Source of the DNA: Microthyrium microscopicum
Taxonomy: Eukaryota
Assembly (NCBI GenBank): GCA_010405405.1
Contig: MU004234.1
Coordinates: 66,671 to 105,152, forward strand
Length of the DNA stretch: 38,482 bases
Direction of reading: 5' to 3'
Part shown: piece after piece, positions 11,849-38,482 of the stretch
Position numbering within the stretch: the stretch's first letter is position 1
How the letters are laid out: every line of letters starts with the position of its first letter
The notes under the pieces: generated by a model
Told to the model about the DNA's origin: nothing
The model's database searches: none
The model's input: the letters and a program-made list of their open reading frames with translations, nothing else
Made by a program: the position numbers and the translations under genes

Positions 11849-12400
11849 ATGCCACGAACTTATCCATCTCCTCTCAAAGGCTACTCAGAGCAACTCGCTC
11901 TACCAACAACCACCCACCGCGATGGCAAAGGCTGGGCCATGGACAAGCTTGATGCAACCAAGGACACAAAAAGAACAGGCACCGCCTATAAGTCCTTTCC
12001 CGAGCCAATAACCACCTACTACACCACCGGCGGTTTTGATGCCCATATTCTCTTCTCACTCTCATCTCTGGAGGAGCGCAACTACGCCAAAGAACTACAT
12101 ACACGCGTCCGCTATGAGTTTCCAGAGCTGCGAATATACACCCTATTCGAGGAACCAGCTGGCCCATTCCCCATGGGCTCTTTTGAAGTGAGTTTGCGAA
12201 CCCCAGAGGAGCTGGGAGTTTTTGTTGCGTGGTTGGTGGTTCATCGAGGGCCGCTTTCTGTTTTGGTACATCCGAATACGGACGGAGAGGAAGAAGAGGG
12301 ACTGAACTCGGCGGTGGAGGATCATACAACAAGGGCGGTTTGGATGGGTGATAAGGCGGAGTTGAATTTGGATTTCTTCACTAAACAGAGAGAAAAGTAG
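11849..12400 (+). CDS. DOPA 4,5-dioxygenase family protein
   Basis: 183-aa ORF with family motifs GGFDAHI, YAKELH.RVR.EFPELRIY, GPxP, FEV, WLVVHRGPLSVLVHPNT and DHT.RAVWMG. Confidence 0.88.
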   Translation: MPRTYPSPLKGYSEQLALPTTTHRDGKGWAMDKLDATKDTKRTGTAYKSFPEPITTYYTTGGFDAHILFSLSSLEERNYAKELHTRVRYEFPELRIYTLFEEPAGPFPMGSFEVSLRTPEELGVFVAWLVVHRGPLSVLVHPNTDGEEEEGLNSAVEDHTTRAVWMGDKAELNLDFFTKQREK

Positions 12401-12554: not shown

Positions 12555-13760
12555 TTATAGTCGCTCGGGGCCGGGTACAGCTGGCTTTGGTTGTGGCAAA
12601 GAGTGTTCGCCGGAAGGTAGCGGGTGAATTGGCAACGTGGATTCGCTCTGACCTTTCTCTTCATCCTGCAACTTATGCTCGGCATACTCGTCCTCATCAA
12701 ACGTCTCCTCCTCGGAAAAGATATGAGACACACGAGGTAGCGAGAAAGATCGTCCATGCTCTGGAGTCGGTGCCATTGCAGTAGTAGCGCGCGACTCCTC
12801 CTCAAGCTGCTTGCCAGGAAGGTGTGCGCTACCATAACTACCGTAGCCGCGAGCACCATCCGGGATATGGAAGCGTAGATCGACACGTAGGAAGGCGTAG
12901 AGGAAGAGCACAATGATCTCGACGCCAAAGTCGGCGATGTAAAAAGCGCCTTTGTTGAGGTAGGCTGGCATTGGTTGAGTGCGTGGTACTGGTGTCTTCC
13001 AGGAGGTGGCAGCGCGGTAGGACGCACCAAAACAGACGAGGACTGCGGAGAGAAGTAGGACCCGAACCTTTGTACGCCAGCGGCCGGCGCCGAATTTGTC
13101 GAGATTGTGGCGGCGGGGGATTACGAGACCCAGGAGAACGATTGGAATTGGGATGAAAGAGACGATGGCAAAGTACGTGACGCCGAATAGCTGTATGCCT
13201 CGATCAATGTTCCGGATGCGCGGATTCAATGTGTAGAATGTTTGGACAACCACTGTAATGACCATGATTATGGCGATGAGAACAACGGCGTAGAGGACTT
13301 TGAATGCCAGGCTGAAGAATTTGTGCCAACCAAGGTCTGGATGAGACGCTCGCATAAGTCGCTGCGTGAAGATCAGGTTGATGATAAATATGATCAGAAC
13401 ACCAGCTGCCGTAAAGATCTGAGCAGCGATGGCGAGGGATATGTCGTGTGGAAGAGCAATTGATGAGATGCGCATTATGCTCGTTACAATCCGTGCCATG
13501 GAAAATCCGAAGAGCAATTGAGACATTAGAAACTTATGTCCTTTTCTCCTATTCAGCTGATAAATTGTCATGTGGGTGATAGCCGATAGAATGTATAGAA
13601 AGAGAAACACAGATTGAACTGGTATGTCCACAGTCGGCTTTGGAATCCCTCCCAAAGGCCTAAGAATTATTAGCTTCTTGACAATGACATTGAAAATTAT
13701 GTTCACTTACCATGTTGTAGGAGCATAAGGCGGGCCCGGTATTTTAGTTTGTTGAGACAT
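12555..13760 (-). CDS. Multi-pass membrane protein, DUF3112 / RTA1-like; two exons, 384 aa
   Basis: Exon 1 13760-13711 (MSQQTKIPGPPYAPTT), 51-nt intron 13710-13660 (GTAAGT...GCTAAT...TAG), exon 2 13659-12555 in frame (W-PLGGIPKPTVDIP...). About seven hydrophobic helices; motifs HKFLMS.LLFGFSMARI and NLIFTQRLMRA.HP..GWH. Confidence 0.85.
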
Positions 13761-16069: not shown

Positions 16070-16270
16070 CAGTGTTGGAACTCGAGTTAGTATAGTCGAG
16101 TACTAGTACTAGTACGGCTAGTATAGGATTATTTTAATACTAACTCAACTAGACTAGTCTAATCAAGATCTAGGACTAGTACTAGTACTATACTAGTCTA
16201 GAATTATATAATAAATACTCTACTAATACTTAAGTACTAGTACTAGTATTACTAGTATACTAATACTAGT
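16070..16270. repeat. hAT-A terminal sequence (putative TIR) and subterminal short-repeat array
   Basis: CAGTGTT terminus then many ACTAGT/CTCGAG/GTCGAG-like units. The partner TIR is not in the window; the predicted 8-bp TSD is TCGCCGAC (16062-16069). Confidence 0.7.
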
Positions 16271-17974
16271 TTTATATATAGATTAGGGTTAATATTATAG
16301 GGTTATTTTTATATTATTCAATTTGGAATTTTACGTAGATTACAATAGTGTTATTAGTTTTTTAATAGCTAGTCTTATTCTATAGTTATTATACTTTAAA
16401 CATAAAGTTATTTAATTATATTATATTTTTAAAGGTTATTTAGTTATATAGTACTTAATATTATGAATTACTTAATAATATTTTAGATTTAGGGTTCTAG
16501 ATTTATAATATATACGAAACTATAAAAATTAGAGCTAAATACACTAATAATTAGTTTAAATACTAATAATTAGAAGTTAAGAGTATAAAATAATTAAGAA
16601 AAAGAGATAAATCTTAAAAGTTTGTATAAATAACTTAATAGTAGTAGATTTTAAGATAAATATATAAATTATTATATATTTAGATTCGTTAAAGTATAAG
16701 GAAGATAGCCCTAGAGTTAGTTTTTTAATAAGTCGCTTATATACTAATATATAGTAGTATTTAAGAGTTTTTAATAAATATATTAATAAAAGTTTAAGGT
16801 TTATATTTTAATACTAGATAAATAAGGAGTATTATAGGTTATTAAAGATCTTATATATATATTAGTATTATATATATACTATAATCTAGATTTAAGATCT
16901 TATCTAAGCTTAATAAATATAAAAAATAATAATAAAGATAATAATTAATAATAATAATATTCTAAAAAGAAATTATATTTAAGACTTTAAATCTATATTA
17001 TAGTAAAGACCTTAGTAGTAGGTATATATTAGTCTAAATTATATTATATAAACATACTAAAATAGCTATATAATCTTAAATCTAAGATTATATTTAAGAT
17101 TTATAAAATAAGAATTTAAAATATATATCTTTTAAATAATTATTTTATAACTTAAATATAAGTAGCTACATAGTAGTAATATATATAAATATATATACTA
17201 AAATATTCTAGATTTTATGATCTATCTAATGCTATAGGTCTCAAAGCTTATTTAAGTCTAGTTTTAATACTATTACTAATAATACTATTTTATTTTTAAT
17301 AATTATAATTTACTTAATAAGCTAGAATAAGGGTTTTGCTATAGTATACCTAGAGTAAAAGATATAACTATTATAATTATCTATATTTTAATTTATTTTA
17401 TAGTATACTAAATACTAATACCTATATTTAAGTAATAAAATTATATATATTCTTAAAATCTTTATTTATTTATATTATATTTAATTCTTTTATTCTACTC
17501 TTTATAATATACTATTAACGTCTAATTTCTATATAAATTCTAATGCTACTAACCTTATATCCTATAAACTACTATCTAACTCTTTATTCTAATTTAAATA
17601 GTCTACTTTCGTTTAATATAAATACTTATTTTAAGTTAAAACAATATTTTTTTATTTCTTTTATTTAAATACAATTCTAACTCTACTAACGCCTAAATAA
17701 CAAATATAAACAATTTAACTCCTCTAATAATTACTTTCCTCCTCACTATTACTATTGCTATTACTACTATCCTCTTCTAGTAAATATAATAAAGACTTTT
17801 ATAGCTCTTTAATACTAGGCATTTGCTAGTTTTTTAACTAAATAATCCGTTTAGAAGTTTTAGCTAAAAGCTTATTTCTATTATTAGAAATAATATCACT
17901 ACCAATACTAAATGTACTTTTAGCACTAGCTAAAGTAGTAGGTATTATTAAGTATTTCTTAGCTAAGTAAAATA

Positions 17975-18300
17975 TGTGAGAACAGGAATACGAGTAGCGC
18001 TATTATAAAGGTATAGAAAGGATGTAATAGGACTAGTGTTAACTAGCATGTTATATTGTATATTGAATAATTGTGTGTAGAATCTCTAAAGCCTCTAGAA
18101 TTAGGGAGAATTCTAGGGCGTTAAATATACCTAAGGGAATAAAAATTATCTTAGCCTTTATTAGTAATCTATAAAGATCTAATAAAGATCTTTAATTAGA
18201 TTATAAAGATCTTTGATTAGATAATAAAGACTATAAAGAACTAATAGCTGAATAGGTTAGTTCTGAAAGAATACTAGTATTAAATCTAGTTATTCTTACA
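17975..18300 (-). repeat. Copia 3' LTR (326 bp)
   Basis: TGTGAGAA...TTCTTACA ends; direct repeat of 22983-23308; internal ATAAAGATCT tandem units at about 18171-18240. Confidence 0.95.
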
Positions 18301-18399
18301 TACTCCCTTAATGTTTATTCTATTAGAATTTAATTTATTTAAGGTGTTTTTTAACTATAGTTAGACTTGCTAACTATATCTTCTTATAATCTAGTATTT

Positions 18400-21300
18400 T
18401 TAGATTATATTATAACTAATAATATAGTTATATTTTAACTTTTCTAATAAGTTAATTTAGTAAGTAGATTTCTTACTTTCTTTATTATTTTTAGCTTTTT
18501 AGCTATTATTTATCTTCTAACTCCTAGATTAGGTGCTAGGTGATTAAATATAATAGAATTTAATCCTTTAGTAAATATATCTGCTAGCTAGTTCTTAGTA
18601 TTAATATAGTTTAATACTACTATTTTATTTTATACGTTTTCTCTTATAAAGTAATATTATATATTTATATATTTAGATCTAGCGTGGTGTTCTAGATTAT
18701 TAGCTAGTTCTATAGTAGATTTACTATCTATAAATATATTAATAGATTTATATTTAATTATGTTAATTTTATTAAGTAATTCTTTTAGAAACATTAGTTC
18801 TTTAACTATTTCTTTTAAAGTAATATATTCTGCTTCGTAGCTAGATAATACTATGGATTTCTATAGTTTACTAGACTAACTAATTACGTTATTTCCTAAT
18901 TTAAATACGTAACTAGTAGTAGATCGTCTAGAATCTAAATTACCCCTCTAATCTAAGTCTGAGAATTCTATTAGTTCTATGTTAGATTAAGTTATTTTAT
19001 ACTAGTTACTAGCTATATAAATTAGTTTATAGTTTTTAGTGTAATTTAGATATTTCTATACTTTATTTAATAATTTAAAGTGTTCTTCTAAGGGATTAGC
19101 TATAAATCTAGTATAGAAACTAATAGAATATACTATATCTAGCCTTATTTTAGTAGTTAAATAAATTAGCGCTTCTACCTATTACTAATATAGTTTTAAA
19201 TTAATTAAATTAATATTTTTATTGCTATTTTTTCTACTTTTAACACTTAGTTCTGTAAGTATAGAACAGGGCTTTAAATCCTCTTTATTAAACTATTTAA
19301 TAATATTATTTAAATATTTTTCTTGGCTTAGTTCTAGTATTCTTCTAGATCTATCTTTTTTAATTTAAATTCCTAGGAATGTATTTACTTTGCCTAAATT
19401 AGTTACTTTTAGGTCTGAACGTAATTTAGTATAAAGATTATTAATATCTTTTAAACTTAGGCTAAATAGTAATATATTGTCTATATAAATAAGAATTATA
19501 ATATTAGACTTTATATTCTTATATAAGTATAGTAAGATTATTTTAAATTTGTACTTATTTAATACCGTAGTTAGATAATTAAGCTATAGTCTAGGAGACT
19601 ATTTTAAGCTATATAGTGCTTTATTTAGCTTATATACTTTATTTTTAGTATTTTTTGTTATAAATCTAATTAGTTATTCTAGATAAATATCTTTATCTAT
19701 TTTAGTGTAAATAAATGTGTTTTTAATATCTTATTGCTATATTTCTAGATCTAGTAAATTACTTATAGAAAATAATATTCTATAAGCTTCTGCTCTATAT
19801 ATAGATATATAGGTTTCGTTGTAATCTAAACCTAGTTCTTGTGTAAATCCTTTTACTACCTATCTAGCTTTATATTTAACTAGATTATTAAGGGCGTCTA
19901 TTTTAATTTTATATACCTAGTAGCCTCTAAGAACCTTTAAATCTATAGAATTATCTACTAAATTCTAGGTCTTTTGTAGTTCTAATTTATCTACTTTAGC
20001 TTTCATAGCTTCTAACTATTTATTTTTATCTAAGCTTTTAATAGCTTAATTATATATTTTAGGTTTTTTATTTAGTAGATTACTTTTTATTATAATAAAT
20101 ACGTTATCTTCTTCTAGATTAGCTAAATCTAGGGTTGTATTATTATTAATAGCAAGTTTATTAATTATAATGCTAGCTATTTTAACTTAATTTTCTAAGT
20201 TATCTATTTTAATAACGTTAATTTGATTAATATTATTTTTTGCTACTTTGTTCTTTATAATAAAATCTATTAGCTCCTTCTTTTTATAGTTTTCTATATC
20301 GTAAAGTTCTTATTTATAGTATTTATTTTTAAATATAACTAAATCTCTAACCTATTAAGTAGATTTAGATTTAATATTATAGATTTTAAATATATTAGTG
20401 CCTAGGCTAACTAGAATTCTAAGTTTCGCCTTAGAATCTAGCTTTTTTAAACCTATACTTTTATCTTTATATAAAACTATAGATCTAAAGATTTTTAATT
20501 AATCTAATTTTGGTTTTATATTATATTTATACTTATAGGGTGTCTTATTGTCTAGGCTACTATTTGGCGTTCTATTATAAATATAAATAGCTGTTAGAGT
20601 AGCTTCTCCCTAAAAGGTTTTAGGTAGATTACTCTCTTTTAACATTATGTTTATTTTAGTAATAATTATATAGTTATAAATTTCTATTATACTATTTTGT
20701 TCGTATATATAAGGAGCACTATGTTCTTATCTAACGCCTTCTTTTTTTAGAAAGTTATTAAGCTTTCTATTTTTAAATTCTTAACCTTCGTTAGATTTAA
20801 AAGTAATTAATCTTCTTTTATTATTACTATTATTATAATAGTATTCGTTTTTAACTAAACGTTTAATTTCTACTATATTAGGATATATTTTATCCTTAGT
20901 ACGTAGTAGATATATTTCTAGATATCTAGTAGTAATGTCTATAGCTAGTAGAATATAATAGAAACTATTAAAAGTAGTTAGATTTATAGGGCCGTATAAA
21001 TTAGCTACTATCTTATCTAAGAAGTATTTTAGTTTCTCTATTATATCTTTATTTTTGTAATTAGTTATTTTACTTTTAATATATATATTATATTTACTAG
21101 AATTAAATTTACCTAGATTTGTAATAGCTATTAATTTAGCTTTATATAATAGATATAATTTTCTACTAGAAGCGTGTCTTAGTCTTTTATGCTATACTAA
21201 GGTAGATAGCGTTACTAGCTTTTTAGCTTTCTTTTTATTATTATTACTTGTAATAGAAGTAGCTGTTCTAGAAATAAAATAGTTCTCTATATCTAATTTA

Positions 21301-22760
21301 AGTAGATATAAGTTATTAACTTTAAGAGCTATTATAATAAGCTTTTTATCTTTATAAATTAGAGCTGTATTATCTTTAAATTCTATAGTAAAATTAGAAG
21401 ATAACTTACTTATAGAAATTAAATTGACGCCTAGATTAGGATAATATAAATAGTCTTTTAATTTAAATAATATTCTACTAAGTCTAACTACTATATCTCT
21501 AATTCTAGTAGCTATAATAGTGCCTGCCTTGCCCTAATTAATAGGAATATTATATGGTTTAAAATAATGAAACTATGTCTTATCTACTATTAAATGAGAA
21601 CTAGCCCCTAAATGCTTGTTCCTTAGTGTCTAAGTAATCTATAACATCTTCAACGTAAGCACCTGGTGTCTTAGGCTGAACGGTGTTAGATTCTTCGCTT
21701 TTAGTGCTTTTGTTATCTAGATCTAGATTGAAGTCTAGCTCTATTGGTGAATCTAGGTTAGAACTAGTAGTAACTAGTACCTGATCTTCTGTTCTAGCTT
21801 AAATGGGCTTAGTAGATTTAGATTTCTTACTAGAATCCTTTGAGATCTTGCTATTATTTAGCGTTTTTTAAGTTGTTAATTTAATTCTAGGCTTGCTATA
21901 ATTAATAGCAACATTAGCTTGTTCTTAACGTTTAAATAACTCTCTAGTTCCTAGAGAATATCTAGCCGTATTTAGATTATTGTTAGATCTAGATCTAGAT
22001 TCTTGTTTGTTTGTTTTGTCTTTATGATGGAACTAATAGCTTGCTAAGTAATAGCCTATCTTTTTATAGTAGTGGCACTATTTACTAGAATTAGGTTAAT
22101 TATTACGTCTAGCGCTGTATTAATTATTAGATTTATCGTTAGATCTATAATTACTATAGAGTGCTGTTTCTTTTTCTAGGTGTTCTTATCTTCTAGATTT
22201 GTCTAGTAAATTAGCAAAAAGAACTTCTAGATCTATCTCTAGCGTCTTATTATAGTAAGATTACGTAATAATATTAATAAAAGCGTTATAGCTTAGTATT
22301 AGCCTATTAAGTAACTAGGTAGCTATGACTTGTTTTAGTAATTCTATGTCTTTTGAAACGAGTTGATTAGATAACGATTTAATTTAATTTAGAAACTCTT
22401 CTATAGAGTTAAATTAGGTTAGGCTAGTATTGAAGAACTCCTTATAAATTAGGAATTTACTAGAGAAACCTTTAGAACTATATAAATTACTAAGGGCTAT
22501 CTAGGTCTCTAGAGCTATATTGTATTTACTAACTTGTAGTAAGGGTCCGTTTTCTAGGGCTAGCCTAATATAGGATAGTGTTTTAGCGTCTATCTTAGCC
22601 TGAACGACTATGTTATCTTTAATAGCCTTATCTATTTCTTTATTTACTAGAATGGCATGTATTTATAGCTTCTATATATTGTAGTTATTAGAACTACGTA
22701 ATTTCGTAATTTTGTAGGGATCTATAGCTTTGTATTAGTTAAATCTAATAGTATTAAAAA
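18400..22760 (-). pseudogene. Copia gag-pol remnant (boundaries approximate)
   Basis: Zinc knuckle CHYYKKIGYYLASY* (~22035-22077), GASSHL protease remnant (~21590-21610), LV*HKRLRH (~21175-21200), F*GEATLTA integrase, YKAR*VVKGFTQELGLDYNETY (~19809-19875), IYIDNIL (YVDD, ~19480), SDLD*RGNLDSRRSTTSY and LADIFTKGL RNase H. Confidence 0.9.
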
Positions 22761-22982
22761 TTTAAAGCTAAAATATCTATTTTTGGTAAAGATATTATTA
22801 AGTAAAGTTGGTTAAATTTACTTGTTCTTATGTAGAAGTAATGGAGTATAGTTAGAATATATGTGTAGAGATGTAGCGTTTAAAGTGTCTTATTAGCTAA
22901 ATGCTTACTAGCGTCGTTTCTTTATTCTTAAAAAGATTAGTTTTAATTAGATGCTTTTTGGCTTTGTTTTAGGCTTATAACC

Positions 22983-23308
22983 TATAAGAATAGGAATATG
23001 AGTAGTGCTATTATAAAGGTATAGAAAGGATGTAATAGGACTAGTGTTAACTAGTGTGTTATATTGTATACTAAATAATCGTGTGTAGAATCTCTAAAGC
23101 CTCTAGAATTAGGGGGAATTCTAGGGCGTTAAATATACCTAAGGGAATAAAGATTATCTTAGCCTTTGTTAGTAATCTATAAAGATCTAATAAAGATCTT
23201 TGATTAGATTATAAAGATCTTTGATTAGATAACAAAGACTATAAAGAACTAATAGCTGAATAGGTTAGTTCTGAAAGAATACTAGTATTAAATCTAGTTA
23301 TTCTTATA
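22983..23308 (-). repeat. Copia 5' LTR (326 bp)
   Basis: TATAAGAA...TTCTTATA, the RIP-converted form of TG...CA; same length as the left LTR. Confidence 0.95.
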
Positions 23309-24021
23309 AAATAAAATAGAAAATTCTATTTGTTTTATATTCTAGTATTTTAAAGGAGACATTTTAGGATTAGTAACGCGTACTTCTCTTAAATAATAAA
23401 TAAATTCCTCTTCTATAAGAGTATTATTACTAATTGGAATAAAAAACTCGTTTTGTTATTTGTTTGGAATAATAATAGGAATATTACTATTTTGAGTACC
23501 TAAAGAACTAGGATTTAGCTTTCTAAAAGCTATATAATATTTATCTTTAAATAGTTTAGATACATTACTTAGAATATCGTTGTAGTAATATAATATACTA
23601 TAAGGCGTATTTTTAAAATACTCTATTTTATATCTAAGATCTAGAATTAATACTAGAATAAAAGGTTTTAACTTTTTTACCTATTCTAGATTATAAATCT
23701 TATAAAGATAGTACTCTTCTAGCTTTTTAATACCTGCTTTTATAGCTTTAATAAAGTATTTACGCTTTAGATAATTAGCTAATAAAATAGATCTAATAGA
23801 TATTAAAAATTTAAGTATCTTTTCTTCTAATTTATTAAATAAAGAATAAATATATAAAAGCGTTTAATTTAATGTAGTATAAATTTGCCCTTATAGAGCA
23901 ACTATAGGTACATTAAAAAACTTAAGAATATCTTTTAAATTCTTTAGTGCTAACTAATTAGCTTCGTTAAAAGTAAACTTCTTTTTAAAGTTTTTATCCT
24001 TAGTATTTATAAAGACATATT

Positions 24022-24320
24022 CAGGGTTGCGAATCTAGTATGTTTTATCTAATCTAGTATCTAGTAAATCTAATCTAGTCTAGTATCTAGTTTGAGATTT
24101 TTTGGACTAAATCTAGTATTACTAGTATCTAGTTTTAGTAAAAACTAGTCTAATCTAGTACTAGTATATAATTATATTAATCTAGTAAATACTAGTATTT
24201 AATTAAGTATACTAGTCAAACTAGATAATACTTATTATAATTTAAATATATTTATTTTTAAATAATTTTTATATCATTCGATAGCTCTAGACTAGGAGAT
24301 TTCAGATCTAGTCTTAGTTT
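24022..24320. repeat. hAT-B left terminus (putative TIR) and subterminal repeats
   Basis: CAGGG start followed by a dense array of (A)ATCTAGT/ACTAGT units. Confidence 0.75.
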
Positions 24321-25008
24321 TTATTAAATACTACTAGTTATAGCGTTATAATGAGTTTTCTAAAATAACTTAATAAATTTAAAATCTTAGATTTAATTTT
24401 ATATAATACTAACTATAGTATAATAAGAAATAGTTTAAGATATATTATACTAAACTAAGTATATTCTTTAAGGCTATAGATTAGTTTTAGCTTATAACTT
24501 AATATTTATAATAGTATTTAATACTTTAAGTAAAAGAAATATATTTACTTAGATATTATATTAAATTCTAAGTAATATATAGAATATATATATAGTACTA
24601 AAGTATATATTAGCTTAATATTACTATAGACTTAATTACTAGTATAAATATTAGTTATAACTATTATATATAATAGAAAGATTTATTTATATTTTTAACT
24701 ATTTAGTAATAGTAGTTATTATTAAGTTATTATATCTAATAAAAATACTAACCTATAGTAAAAGCTACGTTCTTTAAGATAGCTTATTTAGATTTTCTTA
24801 TCTATGTCTTATAATATTATATTAAATATTAAATTTAACTTTAAATTTTAATAAATATTATATCTATAACTAAAAGATAAGATATAAAAAGATATGCATT
24901 ATAATTAGAAAAAAATACTATATTTTCTAAGCTATCTTTCCCCTTTGTTTTAGTATAAAAGAAAAACTAAATAAGTATAGACGTAAAAACAAAAACTAAA
25001 AATAAGAA

Positions 25009-26191
25009 CTACCAATCTATAATATCTAAATCTTCCTATTCAAAGTCTACTTTATCTTCTTTATTAACGGTAGTAATAAAACTAGCGCTAAGATAAGAAG
25101 TATTTCCTAATTTGGAAATATAACCGTCTAGAGCCGTTTTAAAAGCTACTGGTTTTGGCTTTGCTAAAGCCTGTTTTTCTGCCTAAAAGAAATTAGCTAA
25201 AGTATTAAAATTAATAATAATTAGTAACTTACAATATAAGCTACATACTTAATAGCGGTAGCTACTTTTTTAGCCTTTTTAATAGCCTAATCGTTTGCTA
25301 CTTTATCTAAGTGCTTTTATTGTAATTTAGCTCTAAAAGCTACTCTTTTAGCTTTTATAGCTTCTTTTTTAGTAGCTTTTTAAGCTAAATGCTTTTTAGT
25401 AAGTATACAAAGAGCTTCTTAAATAGTTAGTTCTTAGGGTCTAAAAATAGGGCTTTTAGGACGACTATTATTTATTAGATATTAATTAATAAAATAATAG
25501 AATATAACTTACCTTAGGATCCTAAATTAAAAAGTACTAGTAGAAGGAGAAGATAGTTTATAACTAGGGCTTAGAGGAGATCTATTTAATAATTAGTTAT
25601 TAATTAATTAATTAATAAAATAAAGAAATATTACTTACTTTATAGCTTCTAGATACCTTTTAAGTTGCTTTTTAAAGGCTATTTTTAGCCCTAACTAATT
25701 TGTACTTAATACTAGTATATTAATTGTTTATTAACAACCTATACTAGTCTAAATTTAGACAGTAGTAGATAGAATAGGTATAGTAGTATCTACTTAATTA
25801 TATAGGAAGGTATAATTTATATTAATCTTACGTACTTCTAAAGCATAATATATAGTAAAAGTATAATTAAGATTAATTTCTTAGTAAAGTAGGTTATTTT
25901 TAATACTAAAATAGGTATATTTAAGTTTCTATTCGTCTATAAAGAAGACTATATAGCCTAAATAAGGGCTATTAATAGCGCTATCCCTTTTTAGGATAAA
26001 GATTTCAAGATTAGATATTCTTTCGTTTAAAATTAAGGTATTTTAGTAGCCTAAAAACTCTGCTTAAAATCTTTAAGCTTTAATAAGCTACTTACGTAAG
26101 AAAGAACGCTCTATTAATATTAGTATTAGTTATATAAAGGGTTTAGTTACTTATTAATAGGTTTTATTGCATAGGGGTCTAGCTAAGGCAT
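25009..26191 (-). pseudogene. RIP-mutated multi-exon accessory gene of unknown function inside hAT-B (~327 aa reconstructed)
   Basis: Introns 25638-25582, 25512-25465 and 25232-25183 have GTAAGT donors, CTAAT-type branch sites and TAG acceptors and preserve one reading frame. Further introns at about 26154-26111 (donor ATAAGT) and 26256-26193 (5' UTR). Reads MP*LDPYAIKPIKRSFLRK...KEAIKAKRVAFRAKLQ...VDFE*EDLDIIDW-stop. Confidence 0.7.
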
Positions 26192-26376
26192 TCTAATTTA
26201 AAAAGTTAATAAAAGTAAAAAATAAAAAAATCTTTATAAAAATTAGAATAACTTACGAACTAGGCTAAGATAGGCTAAATAAAGACTATAGCTAGAAAGA
26301 GGAGGAAAAAAGGATATAAAAATAATATCTTTTAGATGCTAGCCATAGCTAGAAACTAAAAAGATAAAACTTTAAT

Positions 26377-26551
26377 AATTTAAGAAAGAAGAATTAAAAG
26401 AGAGGGAAGGGCAACTTATATAGAGATTTTAGATTAGACTAACTATATTCTAATTAGTTTAACTATATTTTAAGCTAGATTATAGTTAATCCGATCTAAA
26501 ATCTCTATATAAGGTACTCTTCTCTCTCTTTTAATTCTTCTTTCTTAAATT
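26377..26551. promoter_or_regulatory. Long inverted repeat (~79-bp arms, centre 26464), candidate symmetric bidirectional promoter
   Basis: 26377-26455 pairs with 26551-26473, with most mismatches being transitions. TATATAAG on the minus strand at 26415-26422 and on the plus strand at 26506-26513, each followed by a CT-rich tract. The repeat is directly visible; promoter function is inferred. Confidence 0.75.
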
Positions 26552-26559
26552 TTATAAAA

Positions 26560-27300
26560 AAATTACTTTTTAGAAATATATTCTAAAGTACTACTACTCT
26601 TAACTAGTTTATATATTATTATCCTTTTAGGGTATATATTCCTACTTTTTTTATAGATTTTTCTAGTAAGTTTTTTTTTTACTTTTTTTATTTTTTATCT
26701 AACTTTTTTTTTAGTTATTTAGTATATTACTAAGTAGTCTCTACTTTTTATTTCTATTTCTAGAAGTATAGAAAATACTTTTTTAAAGCTTTTTATAGCT
26801 TTTTTTAGTAAGTTTATTTTTTACTTTTTTTTACTTTTTTTTATTTTTTTACTATATTCTAATATTTAATTTAGGCTTCTTTTCTAGTAGTATTTCTACT
26901 TTATACTTTTAGTATTACTATTAGTAGTAAGTTATTTACTTATATTTTAGAAATATTTTACTAACTTTTATAATTTAGTTTATTACTATTTTTATTAGAG
27001 ATTATATTTATATTTTCTTTAATATTTCTTTATTCTATTTAAGATTTATCTTTATAGTATATACTATACGCTATTCTTTATTATTTAGCTAAAATAAAGT
27101 TTAAAAGCTATTATTATTTTATAATATAGTTTTTATTTTTTAATTTCTACTTAAGTTTTCTATAACTTAGTTATTTATTAGCTATTTTATAGACTCTTTA
27201 TTATCTTAATCTATCTTTATAGTATTCTCTAGTTTACTAGAGTTATTATATTATATCTTTCTATATTCTATATAGATTTATATTAAAAAACTAAAAAAAT
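26560..27300 (+). other. Putative spliced plus-strand unit with three introns (T-rich exons; long transposase 5' UTR, ncRNA or small hydrophobic ORF)
   Basis: GTAAGT...CTAAC/CTAAT...TAG introns at 26666-26714, 26808-26874 and 26927-26978. Confidence 0.55.
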
Positions 27301-29300
27301 AAAAAATAATAAAAAAATATTTCTTTTTTGTTTTTATTTACTTCTTACTTAGTTGTACTATTTAAGACTAGTAAAATTTGTACTATCTACTTTCGTATAT
27401 TTCTAATAGATCTATGAATTTAGAATTCCTTATCTAGCTCTAGATTTTAATCTAGAAATAAAAGAAGTACCTAGATTTATATTCTCTATTTATTATATAA
27501 AATAAGTAATATTAATAATTTAGAAATAAATAATAATAATTCTAATCTTAATCTACCTAATACTTAGCCTGCTAGCTAACTATCTAATTTAGATACTAGT
27601 ATAGGTCCTTCTAATAGTACTTCTTAAGTTACTGTTAGATTAAATAAATATAGAGGTAATAAATATAATAAATCTACTTATAGATTAAATGATAGTAGCC
27701 CTAGTGCTACTTATATCTTTAAATATGGTTTATTTACTAGAGAACTATTACCTATTAATTTTAATAAATCTAGAGAGTTTAAAATAACTTATTCTCTTTG
27801 CTTATCTAATTATGAAAGAATTGTTCCTTTTAAGGATTTTTTAACTTCTAATTTTGCTATATATTATAGAAGACATTATCCTACTATAGCTACTAGATAA
27901 GAAGAATATAATACTAAATAGACTATAGAAGACTATAATATAGAATAAGCATTAATTACTAGCTCTATTAATAATCCAAATATTTCTATTATCTCTCTAT
28001 TTACTAGAGTAGCTAGTAGTCTAGATACTAGAAAACGTATAAGATCTAGTACTAATTATGAGTTTCTATAAGAAGAAGCTCTATATTTAATTCTAGCTTT
28101 TATTATAGATAATAATCTATCTTTTAATATCTTAGATTCTTAATCTTTTAGAGACCTATTAGAATATTATAATTATAATACGCCTAAAGCTAACTATAAT
28201 AACGTTAAAAAGCTATTAGATACAACGTTTAACGACTCTCTTAAAATATTTAGATTAGAAGTTAAATAAGTAATAAAAAATAGAAATTACTTCTCTATTA
28301 CTTTAAATGCTTAGATAGCTAGTAATTAAACTACCTTTTTAGGTATAATATTAATATATATTAATAATAATACAAAATTACAATATAAGTTAATAAGATT
28401 TAAAGAGTTAACTAAAAGCTATACTAGTATTTATATTTCTTAAGTATTTAATACTTATTTAATTAATTATAGTCTAGATATTTCAAATATTATTAGTATT
28501 ACTAGAGATAATGCTAGTAATAATAATACTCTAGTAGATTAATTAAAACTTAAAGCGTTTTCTAGAGACTCTATAAGTTTTTATAATATTTGTTATACTA
28601 CTTATATTATTAATTTAGTAGCTAAAGAAGTATTAAAACGTTTTCTAGCTTCTTATGATATAGAAGTTAATTTAATAGCTTATATTAATACGCTATTAAA
28701 TTTAGAAGATAATAACGATGAAGAAGATAATATAGAAAGTAAAGATAGTACTAAGCCTTTAGGTTTAATACAAAAAGTAAGAAGAATTATTACTTCTATT
28801 AAATACGTAGGAGTTTATAAAAGATTATTTATTATTAGTCTACGTATTTACCGTCGTAATAGCGAGATTCCTATTACTACTAAGATTAATAAAGTAGCTT
28901 TAGATAATGATACTAGATAGAATTCTACTTATTATACTCTTAATTCTTTTATTCTTCTTAAAAAATGTATTTTATATATTTTTAATAATATAACTAAGCA
29001 AAAGTTTAGAAATTAATTATTATTAACTAATAGCAATTAGCACGTATTAGTTACTTTAAGAGATATATTAAATTACTTTGTTTATCCTTCTACTAAGCTA
29101 TAAGGTCAAATTTATAGTACAATTAATTAGACTTTATTATATATTTACTAATTATTTTAGTAGCTAGAAGAGAAGAAGTATTTAATAGAAAATAATTTAG
29201 ATTCTTTATCTAGTTACGAAGAAAAGAAGTTTTTTATTAAAGCTATAAATCTAGCTATTAATAAGCTAGATAAATATTATAAAAGGAATATAACTACGTC

Positions 29301-29568
29301 TATTAGAAACGGGTCGTTCTAAGTAGGTAAAGACTATAATTATTACGGTTTAAGTAGATATATAAAAATAGAGACGAGAGTAATTGCTAGGAAGTTACTT
29401 AGACCTCTATAATCTTTCTTCTTTATTACCTAGAGCTATAAGGACTCTACTAAGCTATCTATATTTATAATAGGTCGTTATTAGTTAACCTAACTAATAA
29501 TGCTTCATTCTATGTAGACGTATCTTATTAGTAATTATCTTAAACTAAAGGTATCCTAGTTCCTAATA
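29301..29568 (-). repeat. Gypsy 3' LTR (268 bp)
   Basis: TATTAGAA...CCTAATA; direct repeat of 37761-38028. Confidence 0.95.
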
Positions 29569-30399
29569 TTATCCTCCTTCTTAAGGCTATTTATCCTAAA
29601 GAGCATATTTAAAGGTTCTAATAGATATTTCTTATGCTTATTTATAGCTTTTAACTATACTCTATTATACTAAGACTTAGGAGAGGATAAGGCTTAACTA
29701 AACGTATAGAATTAAGTTATTTATATCTTAGAGAGTCTTCTATAGCCTAGTAATATTTTTATTCTTTAGCTTTAGTATATTACTTATTTAAGATAGATAG
29801 CTCTCTATTTTTTATCTACTCTAGATAAATAGCTCTCTATTTTCTACTAGTCTTAGGCTATAATTAACTATATTAACTTAAACTTAAAGAAGTCTAGTTA
29901 TTAAGGTCTAATATATTAGTAGGATATTTAATAAGTAGTTAATAGCTCTATTAGGGTCTTAATTAGTTAATACTAGCTTTATTAGAGCTAAATTAACCTA
30001 TTTATAAATATAGCGTAGTACTACTATTTATATTTAATTAGATCTTATTAAAATACTACTAGATAATTATTCTATATATAGTATAGGTTATCTAGTTATT
30101 AAAATATATATAGTTTAACTTAATTAGTTATACTATATTAAATATACTAAGTTTATATTAGTTTAGTATAATTAGCTTTATAATAGGTTAAGTAGTTATA
30201 ACTTATATATAAAACTACTTTATAAGCCTTATTTAGCTCTAGATTAAAAGCATATTTTAACCCTATTTTATGTTAAAAAGGGTTCTTAAAAGGGTACTCC
30301 TTATATACGTATTTTAACGCTTCTTACGTCTAATTAAGAATTATTTTACGTTATTTATAATAAGGTATTTAAATCCTTACTTAAAAGTTTAGAAACTCT

Positions 30400-32190
30400 A
30401 AGGCTAAGATTATACTTTCCTATTTAGGAAGTTATAACCTCTTTAAGTACTTACTATACTATGCGCAACTTTCTTTTATTATAAGAAGCTCTTATAAGTC
30501 TTTACTAAGTACTATTACGTTAATACTTAGCTATTTTAAAAAGATAAAAAGATTTAAGTATAAAATAACCCTTCTTACTCTAAATTCTTTATTTCTTATC
30601 TTTTATACTCTAAATCTTAAGGTAAGTAGAAATTCTATAGTTTTATAAATATACGTAAAGATTACTATTACTAACTTATTTTACGTTATAGGTTCCTTTC
30701 TAGTAACTATAAATTTTCTCTTCTTAGTTATTAAGCTACTTAGCACCTTTTTAAGTCCTCTTAACCTATTTTAGTATACTTTATACCCTTCTAACCTTTA
30801 ATAACTTATCTTAACTAACCTATATACTTTTAAACCTATCTTTATTTAAAGTAAATATTAATATAAATAAGTTACTTAAAGATTCTATTAAAGGCTCTTA
30901 GGTTCTTATTAAGAATAACTTTAACTCTAGTAAGACTATAGTAACTATTCCTACTAGTAATAATATTATTACGTCCTATAATAACTAAATCTTAACTACT
31001 AATATTATAGACTTTACTAAAATAGTCTTTAAGAATAAGATAGAGTAGAAATATGCTAATAAGAATATTATAGCCTTACTTAGCTNNNNNNNNNNATTTC
31101 CTTTCTTCTTTAACTACTAAACTCTATCTTATTTCTAACTTAAAATATTATTATACTTAGTAAGTTAGTTTAAGTAAGTACTTTATTAAATGCCTTAATA
31201 TAAAGTTAACTAAGAATTATTTAGAGATAATATCTTATTCTAGCTTATTTTATATTACATTATACTAATATAGGTAAGTTATTCCTTATTAGAACCTTTA
31301 TAATAAAGCTAAGCTTATCTTAGTCTATATTATAATTAATAAAGTTATTTATACTCTTAAGAATAATTCTTAGAATAAATTATCTTATAAAGATAAGTAT
31401 ATACTTTATAGTAGTATTTAGTACGTTTATAAGTACGTAGTAACTCTTTATAAGTTATAAGTACTTATTTTAACTAATTCTAGTCTAGTTTTATATATTT
31501 AGACGCTAATTAGTTTATAGTTATATATTTAAGTAGCTAGTAACTAATTTCTTCTTATTATACTCTAGTATTACTAAGGGTAGCTTTTACGTAACCTATG
31601 CGCTTATTAACTACTATATAGGTACTAAAGCTACTTAAAAGCTAGCAAATAATAGCCTTTTAGAATTAGAGAAGCATATTATAACTTATCTAGCTCTCTT
31701 AGCTACTAATATCTAATTCTATTCTTCTAAGCGCTTTAAGCGCTATAATATACTATATTCTTAGCATTAGGACTTTTACTATATTATTAGTCCTTAAAGA
31801 CCTAACTTATCTTAGATAAATCTTTTTATATCTATAATAAGTTACTTTATATCTAACTATCCTATAGTAACTTACTAATGCTAAGAATAATCTAAGTAGC
31901 ATCTTTATAAACTCTTAAGCGCTTCTTAAGCACTATAAAGCTTATTTTAGCATTTCTAAACGCTAAAAGGTTAAGGCCTATATTAAAAAGGCTATTAAGG
32001 TCTTCTATAAGAATAATTATACTAATAAAGACTATTCTAAAGTTAAGGCTATAAGTCCTACTATAAAAAAGCGTAAGATAGGCTAGGTAGCTTCTTCTTA
32101 AGTTAAAATAAAGTTAAATAGGTTATCTTAAGTCTTTTAGAATTTAGTATTATCTATACTTAGCCTTAATTAGCTAAGTAAGGCTATTTT
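30400..32190 (+). pseudogene. Putative spliced antisense accessory gene in the Gypsy 3' region (boundaries approximate)
   Basis: Plus-strand intron-like segments 30622-30691, about 31160/31174-31224, 31274-31323 and 31816-31867. Coding-like frames at 31561-31815 and 31868-32190 are joined in phase by the last intron. Confidence 0.45.
31086..31095. other. Assembly gap (10 N)
   Basis: Run of n characters; true length unknown. Confidence 1.
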
Positions 32191-32749
32191 TTATTATATT
32201 AAGTTATTTTGTGTTTCTTAAAAATAGATTAGTTAATAGATACCCTTCTAGAACTTCCTAAAGATAGGTTTATTAATAGATACCTTTATAGAACTATTAT
32301 ATAGCTAATTTAACTTTTAGTTAGAAATTACTTATTCTTTTATATATTTTCTAATATATATTTTAATTCTATTTTATATTATAAAGAGTTCTTAAAGAAA
32401 TACCCTTTATATATATATAGAGACTTATTTTACGTATTATTTTAAGTTATTTTATATATTTATAACTTAGTAGTTTTCCTATATATTTATTATCTAGTAC
32501 TATTTTTAAGTTACTTTAAGTTAATTTATTATAATATACGTATAAGAAGATTAATTTAGATTCTAATTAGTAAAAAAATTATAAAGTAACTATCTTTCTT
32601 TTTTAAAAGCTCGTCTTAAGTCTTTTAAGTCTTCTTTAGTCTTCCTAGCTATCTTTTTAGTCTTATAGGGTTAAGATCTATTAACTTATCTATAATATTA
32701 TCTAGATATATTATTTTATATTTAACTACTCCTTTAATTATACTTATTA

Positions 32750-35700
32750 CTAGTATAATGCCTTTCTTAGCTAACTTTATATAATAGTACTTTAAAGTAG
32801 TTAAAGAAAGGTTAGCTATAAGCTTCTAGGTTAATTTAGACTCTAAGTAATCTTTTTATTTTATAAGATAGTAATATTTACTCTTTTTATCTACTATATA
32901 CTTTATTACTCTCTTTATATTATATATATCTAGGTCTTCTAGGTTTAAAGAATCCTATAGTAATATAGACTTTTATAAAAAGTAAGGGTTTAGCTTATAT
33001 AGCTTTAATAAAGAAATATAGAATATATTATAGACTTATATATTCTTTAGGAGATTAAGCTAGTAAGTATTAGTATTTATAACCTTTATAATCTTAAAAG
33101 GACCTATATACTTAATATTAAGCTTCTTCTTAACGTAAGTAGTCTAAATATTCTTTATATTAAGTAGGACTTAGTTACTAATATTTAAATAAATGTTCTT
33201 TTTTCCTTTATTATACTAGTTAGCTTAGTATAGCTATACTTTAGCTAATTTATTCCTTATTATATATTATAAAGATAGAATATAATTTACTATTCCTTTA
33301 GCGTTAGGTATAATACTTTTTAATAGCGTTTTAGCTAATTTAAAAGTATAGGAGTTTCTTCTAGTATATATAATAAAAAGAGTAACCCTAATTAATAAGT
33401 AAATACTATTATTATAGTTAAACTTAGCTAAACTAAGCTATCTTATTTAATTATTTTATTTCTAATACCTATAAATCTATAAGTAGTACTTAACTTCCTA
33501 GTTTAAGTACTTTATTTAACTATTAGTCTATAAATAGAATACTATTAAGAGCTTTCTAAGAATAGAAAGGTAATAAAGGAACGTTTTCTAGTACTTAGAA
33601 ATAAAGAAAGGTCCTTAATTAAATATAATAGTATAAAGTATACTATATAGGTATATAACCTCTTATAAGAAGATCTTAGTAAAGTCTTTTACGTCTATAT
33701 CCTTTTTTATTAAAATATAGTAAGCTATTTTAGTTAATTTATTAATAACTATTATAATAGAGTTATAGGTTTAACTATTATAAATATTTAGAGGCAAATC
33801 TATAATAAAATCTATAGTAATATCCTCTTATAGTGCTTCTAAGACTAGTAAGGCTATTAGTAACTCTTTCTAGACTTATCTAATAGATTTATTATATTAA
33901 TAGTTAAGGTAAGCCTTATAATAGTTCTTAATATTCTTCTAGATGTAGTTTTAAGTATAGTAGCGCTTAATCTTCTTAAGTATCTTCTTTAACCCTTTAT
34001 AACTATCTTCTATAGTATTATTATAGAACCTTTATAGAATTTTCTTCTTTTATAACTCTTCCTTAATAAAAATAAGATTTCTACTTATCTATTTAGCTTT
34101 ATCTAAGTTATTCTTAGCTAGAAGAAGTTTATTAATAGCTAAAATCTTACTAGAGCTTATTTTTAGATACTTCTAAGTCTTAATAAGCTTATCTTAACTT
34201 CTCTTAAGTTAGTTTATAGTAGGATACTATATATTAATACTAATATATATAATAATAAAGTCTATAAGTTTAATAGTGTTAGTTTTAGCTATAAGAGTAT
34301 TATTAAGCTATAACTTATTATAGAGTAGGTTAAGTAACGCTTCTATAGTCTTTTTCTATTCTCTTTAGCCTTCTTTAATATAGTCTAGACGTCTTAAAGG
34401 TTTATTAGCTAGATTTATTTTATCTAGGTAATGCTTAATATTAAAATTATATTCTAAGAGTAAATCTACTTACCTTATATATATTAATAATATTTTTAGT
34501 ATTATTTTAAGTAATTTAAGGTTTATATAGTCTATTAAGACCTAAAATTAATCTAGTAAGCTTTATAAGTACTTTCTAAATACTTTTAAGGAATTTATAA
34601 TTACTAAGAACTCCTATTATAAAGTCTTATAGTAACTCTCTAGTAGAGATAATTTCTAAGAATAGAATATAATAAGTTTCTATAGGCTATCCTAGCCCTT
34701 ATTACGTTATCTTTAGCTTAATATTCTATAAATTATTCTTCTAAAGGTATTAGTTTCTAACTATATAGAAAGCGTAGAGTTAAAATAAGCTAAAATTAGT
34801 ATATTTATAAAAGAATCTTTTAATTTATTAAAAGAATCTAAGGCGTCTAGTAGTAATTTAATATCTATAGACTTCTCCTATTATAGCTTTAGGCCTTTTA
34901 GGGCCTAACTTAGTTCTTTCTAAGTTAAAGCGTTTAGTAGTATAGTAATATAAAAGAATCTAGCAATAAACTAATAATAGTAATTTATAAAGCTAATAAA
35001 TTCTTTTACTTAGTATATATTACATAGTTTTAGTTAATCTAGGTATATATTAACTTATAACTAATTTATAGTAGTACTATCTAGAGTTATAACGTAACTT
35101 AGATACTTTATACTACTAGTATAAAACTTATACTTAAATAGTTTTATGTATAAATAATACTCTATAAGTTACTATAAAACTTCTTAAACGTTTTTAATAT
35201 ATTACTCCTTAGTTTTAGAGTAAATAAGAATATTATTAAAGTAAATAATATATATTACGTCTACTAAGCTTCTTAATACTTAGTTAATATATACTTAGAA
35301 GGCTATAGAAGTATTTATAAGTCTAAATAAAACTACTATATACTTAAATATCCTATATTTAGTCCTAAATATAGTCTTCTACTTATTACTATCTTTAATA
35401 CGTAAATAGTAGTAAGCTTTATATAAGTTAAGGCTAATAAAGAACTTAATGCCTTAAAGTCTATCTAAAGACTTCTTAATAAGAAGTAATACGTACTAAT
35501 CTTTAATAGTAATATTATTTAGGCCTTAGTAGTCTATATAGAGTTATAATATCCTATCTTTCTTCTTTACGAAAAAGATAAAGGCTTTAGTAAGAGATCT
35601 TAACTTCTAAATCTAACTTCTTATAAAGTAAGTATCTAAGTACTTACGTAGAATAACTAACTTAGCCTCTAAGAGGCTATAAATAAGTCTATATAGTACT

Positions 35701-37700
35701 ATAGTACCTAGCTCTAAGTTAATCTTAAGGTCTTATAAACTATATTAGGCTAGTTTAAGTATATCTTACTTACTAAAAGCTTTAATAAACTATAAATACT
35801 TACTTAGGAGCTTTTTTATAAATAAATTTAGGTCTAGTAACTTAACTAGATAATTAAATAGTTAGAATAAACTATTCTAAGCTAACTTAGAGAACTTATT
35901 AGCGTTTATAGTTCCTATTTTACTATAAAAGCTACTAAAAAGTTACTTCTATGTAAGAGTTTTATTCTTAAAGTTTAAAAAAGAATTCTACTTTTCTAAC
36001 TAGGGTATTCTTATAATAATAGAGTAATATAGAGAGTTTATAATATAAAATAACCTTATCTTAGTCTTAAGGAAGTTATTTAAGTTAACTATTATTACTA
36101 TAGCTTCTATAACTCTATAAATTTATATAGAAGTACTATTTAGGTATATTATAAGTATCTTAAAAAGAAAAGTAATATAGAGCTAAAGTCTTTTAGCTAG
36201 CTTAACGTCTATAACGTTAAAGTATAACCTATAATTAACTATAATATCTAGAGATAAGGCTTTTTAGCTCTTATTATCTCTTAGACTTCCTTATAGACAT
36301 ATTTACTTTAACTTTAGTCTTATAAAGTCTACCTTACTAGGTAAGTTATTATTCTTAGCCCTTAACGTCTTTAGAATGTATATAATAATAGTCTTATAGA
36401 GCTATTTAGCGCTAAGCTAAGCTATTTTATTAATAAGAGAAGCTACTAAGTTCTAGTCTATAACTTTATAGCCTTATCTTTCTTTTATAGCTTAGGGTAT
36501 TCTATTTTAAAGTAGAATCTACTATATTTAAAGTATTTAACTTTTTTTAGATTAGACTCTAATAGAATATCTATATTTTAAGTTATTTTAAGCGTAGCCT
36601 ATTCTACTTTATTATTCTTTAAAGAGTAAAAGGACTTTCTAGGTATTCTTAGTTCTTTTAAGTCCTTCTTATACTTATACTTATTTCCTAAGAAGCGTAA
36701 GTATTATTTTAGAAAAAGTTATTCTAAGTTTACCTTTTTAGGAATAGAATAAGCTTTAGCCTTTATAGAGCTAGAAGTTTAGTATAAGTTAGCTTTTTTA
36801 AGGGCCTTTTTAACTATAGTAGTAGTAAACTTCTTATTAAAGAGAATCTTTTTCTATATATTTTTAGGAAGGCCTTTATAGAACTAAAAGAAATAATCTT
36901 TTTAGTTATTATATCTCTATTCCTTTTATAACTTAAGGAGGTTATTATAAAGCTTTTATAAGTAGTATTAACTTAATTTAACTATCTAGGACTTCTTAAA
37001 AGTAATATATTCTTACTTTATAAAGTAGCTTAAATAGCCTAGTATATAGTCTTAGACTACTTACTATATTTTTTAGAATTCTAAGTCCTAAGACTCTTTA
37101 TAAAAGATAAGATTATCTAATCCTATCTATAATAGCTCTTTCTTAAGCTAATTATATCTATAAATATACTAGTAAAGTTATTAGTTATAAGTATTCTTCT
37201 AATAAAAGAATTTAATAAACTTCTATTTAACGTTATTAACCTAAAATATATATTTTTAAAGACTCTTTCTTTTATAAGGCTCTATCTTAAGCCTATCTTA
37301 GTTTAAAGGTCCTAAAAAGGTAAGAGCTTAGCTTAAAAGACGCTAATTAAGTCTTATTATGTTAACTTAGCTAAAGTTCTTTAACTTTTAGGTAGTTTTA
37401 AGCTTACTAGACTAAATTGTCCTAGCTTTTGCTATTAGCTTTTATATCTTAAGCTTTAGCTTCTTTTTATTAATAAGTATATTAAGTTCCTCCTTATAGC
37501 GCGTTATAAAGTTATTTTAAGTCTCTTTAGGTCTAAGTAAGTTAGAATTAGCTAGTTTAATATTAAATAAGTTTAATAGACCTCTAAATATATTAGTTTA
37601 GAGCATAATAAATACTAGTAACCCTTAGCCTAATAGTTAAGGCTACCTAAGTCTTATCTAGGTGCTAAGGTCTAAATATCTACTATTAGATATAGTTTTT
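32750..37700 (-). pseudogene. Gypsy gag-pol remnant with chromodomain (boundaries approximate)
   Basis: YFKYSRFYFKIEYP (RIP-mutated CCHC knuckle, ~36495-36540), IFFVKKKDRIL*LYIDY*GLN (~35520-35580), IIYFNNILIYS (YLDD, ~35220-35250), ITIDFIIDLP integrase (~33795-33825), YIGPFKI (~33030-33050), YLIK*KDYLESKLT*KLIANL chromodomain (~32810-32870). Confidence 0.92.
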
Positions 37701-37760
37701 AATTAGATAAAAAATAAAAATAATTTCTTTAGGTACTTAAGGATTAAAAAGTAATTACTA

Positions 37761-38028
37761 TATTAGAAATAGGTTATTCTAAGTAGGTAAAGACTATAAT
37801 TATTATAATTTAAGTAGATACGTAAAAATAAGGATAAGAGTAATTACTAGGAAGTTACTTAGACCTTTATAATCTTTTTTCTTTATTACCTAGAGCTATA
37901 AAGACTCTACTAAGCTATCTATGTTTATAATAAGTTATTATTAGTTAACCTAACTAATAACGCTTTATTCTACGTAGACGTATCCTATTAGTAGTTATCT
38001 TAAACTAGAGGTGTCCTAGTTCCTAACA
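37761..38028 (-). repeat. Gypsy 5' LTR (268 bp)
   Basis: TATTAGAA...CCTAACA; followed internally on the minus strand by TAGTAA, consistent with a RIP-mutated TGG-starting PBS. Confidence 0.95.
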
Positions 38029-38482
38029 ACGTCTTCTTAATTAACTAAAATAAAACCTTATATAATAGGAATTCTACTAGATCCTAGATATAAATTAGTA
38101 TACTTTAATACTAATTTAGGTAGTATTCTATGCTTCTATTCTAATATATTAAATAATATTAATAGGATATTTAAAGTAGAGTACGATTTAGCTAAGGAGA
38201 GATTAATTAAATTAAATTTTCTTAACTAAAATACTACTACTTTAGTACTACAACCTAGTTCTACTAATAAACTAGAGAATAATTTAGATAGGAACCTCTT
38301 TTTAGGTAATAGAGCTAGAGCTACTTTACCTAATTAGGAAAGTACTACTAAATATATTTAGTATTTTAAAGAAGAGCTTACTAATCCTAATATATACCCT
38401 CTAGAATTTTAGAAAGAAAATAGACAAAAGTAGCTAATATTATATTACTTAGTAGTAAAATAGCTAGCTATTCCTACTACTT

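Follow-up and report, generated by a model that had tools for sequence, protein, structure and literature searches.

A spliced accessory gene head-to-head with the transposase in hAT elements of Microthyrium microscopicum

Classic hAT elements encode only the transposase. The locus considered here lies in a 38,482-nucleotide stretch of Microthyrium microscopicum DNA (contig MU004234.1; hereafter the window) and holds a hAT in which intron-like segments on both strands surround a long inverted repeat between the left end and the transposase. It raises the question of what such an element carries beside its transposase, and whether the additional DNA belongs to the transposon. The original prediction saw here a dedicated module of two divergent accessory units under coupled expression, possibly a toxin/antidote-like pair.

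The element and its AT-rich setting

The window element is a hAT by its TSD, its ends and its dimerisation domain, and has been killed by RIP. The same 8-bp TSD, GACATATT, flanks both ends: the left copy occupies 24014..24021, directly before the left end at 24022 (CAGGGTTGCG), and the same 8 bases follow the right end, which lies beyond the window at G000:C5:107573. Matching 8-bp TSDs are present in ten module-bearing elements (that of the window and nine others), and short terminal inverted repeats of the CAGGGTTGCGAA type are found on both sides. The PF05699 dimerisation domain is matched by a family D copy (3e-15) and by the subfamily A copy at C8:49411 (1.8e-9). The left terminal repeat and subterminal region (24022..24850, plus strand) starts at the same point in all copies but is subfamily-specific, with 20-30% transversions between subfamilies A and B. 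The 5′ part of the RIP-broken transposase spans 27502..29300 (plus strand) and the gene resumes at 38045, beyond a later insertion (29301..38044) that is bounded by 284-nt direct repeats and was inferred to be an LTR element; other copies are uninterrupted there. Excluding this insertion, the element measures about 8.1-8.3 kb. All matches to the window transposase (29/29) carry stops and represent dead copies.

From about 16070 onwards the window is an AT-rich block, with 13-32% GC compared with about 47% before it, and shows the TA excess of RIP. This block is itself a hAT of family D, extending from window position 16072 to G000:C5:113356 with the TSD TCGCCGAC; its transposase is split by the window element, and a separate copy of the accessory gene lies in it at C5:110791. 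Also nested in it is an element with direct repeats at 17968-18267 and 22976-23275. The two RIP-damaged elements with direct repeats of 300 and 284 nt (17968-23275 and 29301-38044), both nested in hATs, are probably LTR retrotransposons. Left of the repeat block stand ordinary-looking host open frames at 8731-11178, 11837-12400 and 12555-13706 (815, 187 and 383 aa from stop to stop).

Several further features were recorded in related copies and elsewhere in the genome. The transposase of the C12 copy contains a 1.1-kb GC-rich insertion with little RIP and direct repeats of about 230 nt at both ends (L037:5160-6295), resembling a miniature LTR element of later arrival. In subfamily A, the 3′ region, 2.3 kb long (L032:3290-972, minus strand), includes roughly 20 units of (AAGT)n and some four tandem repeats of 120 bp each. 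The left subterminal region of this subfamily contains a second inverted repeat at 24492-24660 of the window, weaker at about 74%. A hAT dimerisation-domain match in GC-rich DNA (G000:C9:558218-558415), which does not match the transposase profile of this clade, is possibly an unrelated or domesticated hAT.

A six-exon accessory gene common to four hAT families

On the minus strand lies a gene with six exons and about 357 codons, running from an ATG at 26346 to a stop at 25011-25009, and the five intron-like segments predicted on this strand hold up as GT-AG introns (phases 0, 1, 2, 2 and 0) that keep a single frame. All five have GT..AG borders and branch-like motifs in the window copy; across the 8-9 covering copies the donors are GT or RIP-changed AT, with branch-like motifs and AG ends. 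Exon 1 (26257..26346; all exons and introns on the minus strand) comprises the ATG and a hydrophobic stretch with a 19-residue hydropathy of 2.07, a similar stretch being present in family C; the start reads ATG in 2/8 copies and ATA in 6/8. Intron 1 (26193..26256, phase 0, 64 nt), exon 2 (26096..26192) and intron 2 (26051..26095, phase 1, 45 nt) come next. Exon 3 (25639..26050) encodes a conserved core domain of no known family. It is followed by intron 3 (25582..25638, phase 2, 57 nt), by exon 4 (25513..25581), a Ser/Pro-rich linker with a 3-nt deletion in 4/8 copies, and by intron 4 (25465..25512, phase 2, 48 nt), which is identical in 9/9 covering copies. Exon 5 (25233..25464), found at 9 loci, encodes a lysine/arginine-rich segment, and intron 5 (25183..25232, phase 0, 50 nt) separates it from exon 6 (25009..25182), which encodes an acidic tail and the stop. 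The phases of introns 3 and 5 and the end point of the tail are the same in families C, D and E.

Copies were compared with X placed at stops. The predicted frame has the fewest stops of the window copy in exons 3-6 and is tied in exon 2; in exon 1 it is not the lowest, with 3 stops against 3 and 1 in the other frames. The only indels in the 1073 exon bases are a 3-nt deletion in four copies and a 1-nt deletion private to one copy. A candidate 44-nt intron (26154-26111) was discarded, as its removal would break the frame. In the predicted product a hydrophobic N-terminus is followed by a beta-rich core, and a Ser/Pro linker joins this to a basic segment that precedes the acidic tail. The hydropathy of the start is 1.5-2.2 across the four families, and an ATG stands directly before the hydrophobic stretch in families A/B, C and D. 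From its composition this stretch would be a signal peptide or an anchor, and the product is probably membrane-anchored.

The union of three genome searches places the core exon at 21 loci, which belong to four divergent hAT families (8 in A/B, 3 in C, 6 in D and 4 in E). The cores are 25-40% identical between groups, and the transposase cores of the four families differ by 11-28 transversions per 100 nt. All 21 core loci are arranged head-to-head with a transposase match; conversely, 23 of the 25 transposase loci (29 rows) carry module DNA, the other two lying at contig ends. In 4/4 families the two introns flanking the core are of phase 1 (before it) and phase 2 (after it), and the intron leading to the last exon is of phase 0; the acidic tail is likewise present in all four. 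The module DNA of the window itself occurs at 10 loci, every one adjoining a transposase of the window family, and this, with a gene common to four families, bears out the view of a module dedicated to the hAT lineage. The copy alignments show no termini or TSD of the module's own, as the prediction requires. No host copy of the core, by which transduplication of a host gene would be recognised, was found in the genome, where 21/21 matches are RIP-broken element copies, although a very diverged source could escape such a search. Two weak module matches (C3:2549119 and C3:2559497) lack both core and transposase.

Selection was assessed from transversions, since RIP makes only transitions. Between families D and E, 31/46, 29/40 and 27/39 of the core transversions fall at third codon positions (p ~1e-6; 2.5e-6 for 31/46), and none of 2000 shuffles reaches the period-3 signal of the core. 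The core exon is under purifying selection inside the elements in this comparison. Because the hydrophobic exon (2000/2000 shuffles as high) and the basic exon (1796/2000) give no period-3 signal between D and E, selection is demonstrated for the core only. The signal is weak even for the transposase control (210/2000), so that the silence of the test in the leader described below (468/2000) says little. In the most distant family pairs the third-position excess is slight (p 0.01-0.12), and there the core, at 30 transversions per 100 nt, has outpaced the transposase, at 20-27. The evidence for the accessory gene comes from one genome, in which all copies seen are dead.

Searches for relatives of the product returned almost nothing. 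A profile of the core against 1.84 billion representatives gave one match, P0001, which is an automatic gene model of a hypothetical protein from M. microscopicum itself and is identical to the L064 copy over the shared stretch. A word-index search of longer proteins (0/7999 candidates) and a metagenome scan with P0001 (0/105 stretches) gave no match, searches in Pfam, NCBIfam, PHROGs and PDB sequences gave nothing beyond E 0.02-0.4, and in 80 metagenomic hAT loci, most of them short or distant, no match was better than E 1.2. RIP damage reduces the sensitivity of every one of these searches, the profile search included. No match was obtained in prokaryotic genomes (0/21 stretches) or by Foldseek at E <= 0.001. 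No TET/JBP dioxygenase domain was matched in Pfam by 14 RIP-damaged core exons or the other exons tried, and none of the 12 histone (PF00125) matches in the genome falls in these elements. Two structure models are poor (mean pLDDT 49 and 52). The fold search with model 1 gave many restriction-enzyme-like rows, and a PD-(D/E)XK nuclease reading was considered and dropped, as the best Z of 4.7 (rmsd 2.6, 78 aligned) was not repeated in model 2 (best Z 4.2).

An inverted repeat, a probable leader and exchange of the module

The predicted long inverted repeat is present between the two genes, with a left arm at 26377..26452 (minus strand) and a right arm at 26476..26551 (plus strand). The arms are 89% complementary and rank 1 of 1251 inverted pairs in the window; the repeat scores 52 vs 13-16 in 20 local shuffles, and its folding (z = -12.2) is equalled in stability by 0/200 shuffles. 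Each arm contains an outward-facing TATATAAG (26422-26415 on the left, 26506-26513 on the right) and a pyrimidine tract. All four families (4/4) have a repeat of their own sequence between the two genes, with arms of 76, 105-143, 145-149 and 197-215 nt and only short matches across families; except in family C, the repeats are not tandem arrays. In the window family 2 transversions distinguish the arms over their 76 bases, and the one transversion by which its copies can be told apart is mirrored in both arms, which suggests, from one event only, that the arms are kept alike. Those of family D stand 174 nt apart, differ by 17-19 transversions and end in similar TATA-like runs. The repeat was inferred to be a duplicated core promoter, with the caveat that RIP creates TA steps and the TATA-like boxes may be partly its product. 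The mirrored layout would fit the coupled expression that the original prediction proposed for its module. Coverage by a possible RNA run (X6) was confined to the end of the element.

On the plus strand the DNA at 26552..27501 is a probable transposase 5′ leader. Its three introns are well formed (GTAAG..TAG with CTAAY branch motifs; 26666-26714, 26808-26874 and 26927-26978), and, allowing for RIP changes, their signals are kept where the intron bodies differ by 17% transversions. To this extent the predicted three-intron unit stands, whereas its status as a separate unit is not supported: 9/9 indels in the 683 bases of leader exons are non-multiples of three, the exons are 50-54% T, and those of the window copy hold no ATG. 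In one subfamily, however, paired indels add up to multiples of three, so that a small plus-strand protein keeps a slight probability. The number of introns ahead of the transposase varies by family (3, ~1, ~1 and none clear). DNA blocks are conserved between families (283 nt at 69% between A and D, and 143 nt at 78% between D and E), and no convincing sense-frame protein match across families was found in the leader. The distance of ~3.4 kb originally given between left end and transposase becomes 3.5 kb, as the transposase most likely starts at ~27502, where the C3 copy has an ATG. The plus-strand unit is thus most likely an intron-bearing, non-coding 5′ leader running into the transposase. 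Since it behaves in this way, the divergent pair consists of the accessory gene and the transposase rather than of two accessory units, and with a second protein missing a two-gene toxin/antidote pair is unsupported.

Two observations concern the leader DNA itself. The block at 27186-27454 is 69% alike in A and D though their repeats are unrelated, and is a possible RNA-level or promoter element. The family D leader contains a tandem duplication of about 160 nt (L080:6420-6110, minus strand), the unit of which is 78% alike to the family E leader.

Comparison of copies separates the module from the rest of the element. Between the window copy and the C7a copy, transversions amount to 0-2% over 25022-27271 but reach 20-30% on the left, in the subterminal region, and 9-19% on the other side, in the transposase. 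Expressed per 100 nt for accessory core and transposase, the values are 0 and 11-12 for A vs B, 2 and 15 for D1 vs D2, and 9-11 and 12 for D1 vs E. The near-identity of the accessory gene beside divergent transposases shows two separate exchanges (A/B and D1/D2), by which the gene has been swapped between subfamilies whose transposases stayed different. That gene and repeat were transferred jointly may be due simply to their being neighbours.

Metagenomic loci were reached through the nearest outside transposases (P0002-P0005, 34-37% to family D). All three close relatives with a visible left end (3/3) are without the module, having neither a long repeat nor a core match, and in these single-gene elements the ATG lies 600-670 bp inside the left end; L096 is a whole element of this kind, 3.1 kb long. 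Their existence indicates that the module is probably dispensable for transposition. Trees (n=35 rows, all kept, including any under 120 residues) group the single-gene relatives with family C at 100/97-99, suggesting that they have lost the module, although a topology uniting all module-bearers in one clade passes the AU test (p-AU 0.156).

Possible roles of the module and its place among known systems

The premise that hATs encode only the transposase stands for the classic elements. Two-gene DNA transposons are familiar from maize MuDR, in which mudrA and mudrB are driven from two copies of an inverted repeat; its repeats are terminal and transcription converges, whereas the repeat described here is internal and transcription diverges. 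The premise does not extend to the fungal hATs in print (PMC3538342, PMC6710886, PMC12730594), and multi-gene fungal hATs with histone H3, TET and ToxA cargo are already known. A hAT of Pyrenophora tritici-repentis is described as carrying H3L and a central unknown ORF (PMC3538342), and Mycosphaerellaceae hATs as carrying H3, the P. fijiensis cargo being an intronless retrocopy in contrast to the five introns found here (PMC6710886). The present elements also differ in giving no histone match (0/12) and no host source gene, and the available parts of these two accounts mention neither a head-to-head repeat nor module exchange (PMC3538342, PMC6710886). The hAT7 of rust fungi carries a TET/JBP gene that is proposed to counter silencing and resembles the present gene in being dedicated to the element, in its absence from certain related families and in its transfer from one transposon lineage to another (PMC12730594). 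It differs in its 7-bp TSD, the same orientation as the transposase and a known enzyme domain, compared with an 8-bp TSD, the opposite orientation and no Pfam match here (PMC12730594). ToxhAT is likewise a large Dothideomycete hAT with cargo, but is described as one horizontally moved element with a known effector, and not as a lineage-wide orphan gene (PMC6737239). A parallel of another kind is offered by the Arabidopsis VANDAL elements, whose VANC is a fast-diverging accessory protein associated with family-specific repeats in non-coding DNA (PMC5735166). This is a plant system with tandem-repeat targets in which binding and demethylation were demonstrated, while the present case is a reading of sequence; by hypothesis, the accessory gene would work like VANC (PMC5735166). 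The literature searched, chiefly the main texts of papers outside subscription journals, gave no description of two head-to-head genes separated by a palindrome peculiar to each family and exchanged between subfamilies.

The preferred reading, held tentatively and at somewhat less than an even chance, is that the accessory product is an element-serving, membrane-anchored helper that acts on element DNA or chromatin and is co-expressed with the transposase from the mirrored promoter. An ancestral fungal hAT would have carried a second, spliced gene head-to-head with its transposase. The repeat would be a duplicated core promoter, the outward TATA-like box and pyrimidine tract of each arm switching both genes on together, and transcription from the right arm would pass through the long leader with its three introns into the transposase. 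Anchored in a membrane and binding element DNA or chromatin, the accessory protein would help the element to stay expressed or mobile, and cut-and-paste itself would not depend on it. One cassette, moving between subfamilies by recombination, would consist of the accessory gene, the repeat and the leader, and another of the ends and the transposase. A caveat for this helper is that a signal peptide, if cleavable, would direct the protein away from the nucleus. A bolder extension, in which the two are exchangeable specificity cassettes, is fairly unlikely: an orphan protein with its own palindromic control site would be a new membrane-tethered factor that protects the element against silencing or drives its transmission through spores, with newer cassettes sweeping sister elements by recombination.

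The accessory protein might instead be secreted or membrane-bound and act on the host cell or spores, for example as a single-gene poison/antidote driver, and be kept as favouring carrier cells or benefiting the host. Fission-yeast wtf drivers are multi-exon membrane proteins, and the six exons, the ATG followed by a hydrophobic stretch in A/B, C and D, the exchange between subfamilies and a core that outpaces the transposase between distant families would all suit such a role. A basic segment combined with an acidic tail is met more typically in proteins that bind nucleic acids or chromatin, and this combination, together with only one or two hydrophobic stretches, no family match, no second protein and no sign of two starts, leaves this reading rather unlikely, even with a hAT bearing a secreted effector in print (PMC6737239). 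It is quite unlikely that the gene is an old captured passenger, with a core selection that predates capture or is incidental and with repeats that arose by template switching at a fragile junction and have no regulatory role. Gene capture by fungal hATs is documented (PMC3538342, PMC6710886), the close relatives are hATs with a single gene, about 3.1 kb long in L096, and selection is demonstrated for one exon; yet the genome holds no host copy, frame and intron phases are kept in four families with such distant transposase cores, the D vs E signal arose inside the elements, and the repeat occupies the same position in 4/4 families.

The two remaining alternatives concern the plus strand and the repeat. 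That the plus-strand unit is after all a second accessory unit, a small-protein or non-coding RNA gene (antidote or regulator) ending near 27300, where an A-rich stretch (27283-27315) could be its 3′ end, would agree with the three well-formed introns, the blocks conserved between families (69% A vs D, 78% D vs E) and the compensating indels of one subfamily. It is made improbable by the non-triplet indels, the missing ATG in the window copy, the variable intron number and the failure to find a convincing sense-frame match, and the transposase would then have to find a promoter of its own within 200 bp. The repeat might otherwise act as a hairpin RNA or cruciform that limits the element's own activity, with the second gene secondary, which would account for a very stable fold and for arms kept alike. 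Promoter-like boxes facing outward at the arm ends mean that transcripts would not span both arms, and the family D arms are far apart and strongly diverged (174 nt, 17-19 transversions), so this role is highly improbable.

In fungi, DNA transposons are exposed to RIP and methylation, and the defences suggested for them until now (TET, histone H3 copies) are recognisable proteins. Here a hAT clade has kept an unrecognised gene under selection, together with a different palindrome at the same place, in four families. If the gene is indeed a helper, an anti-silencer or a driver, its product would represent a new protein family, and the repeat would be a compact two-way fungal promoter.
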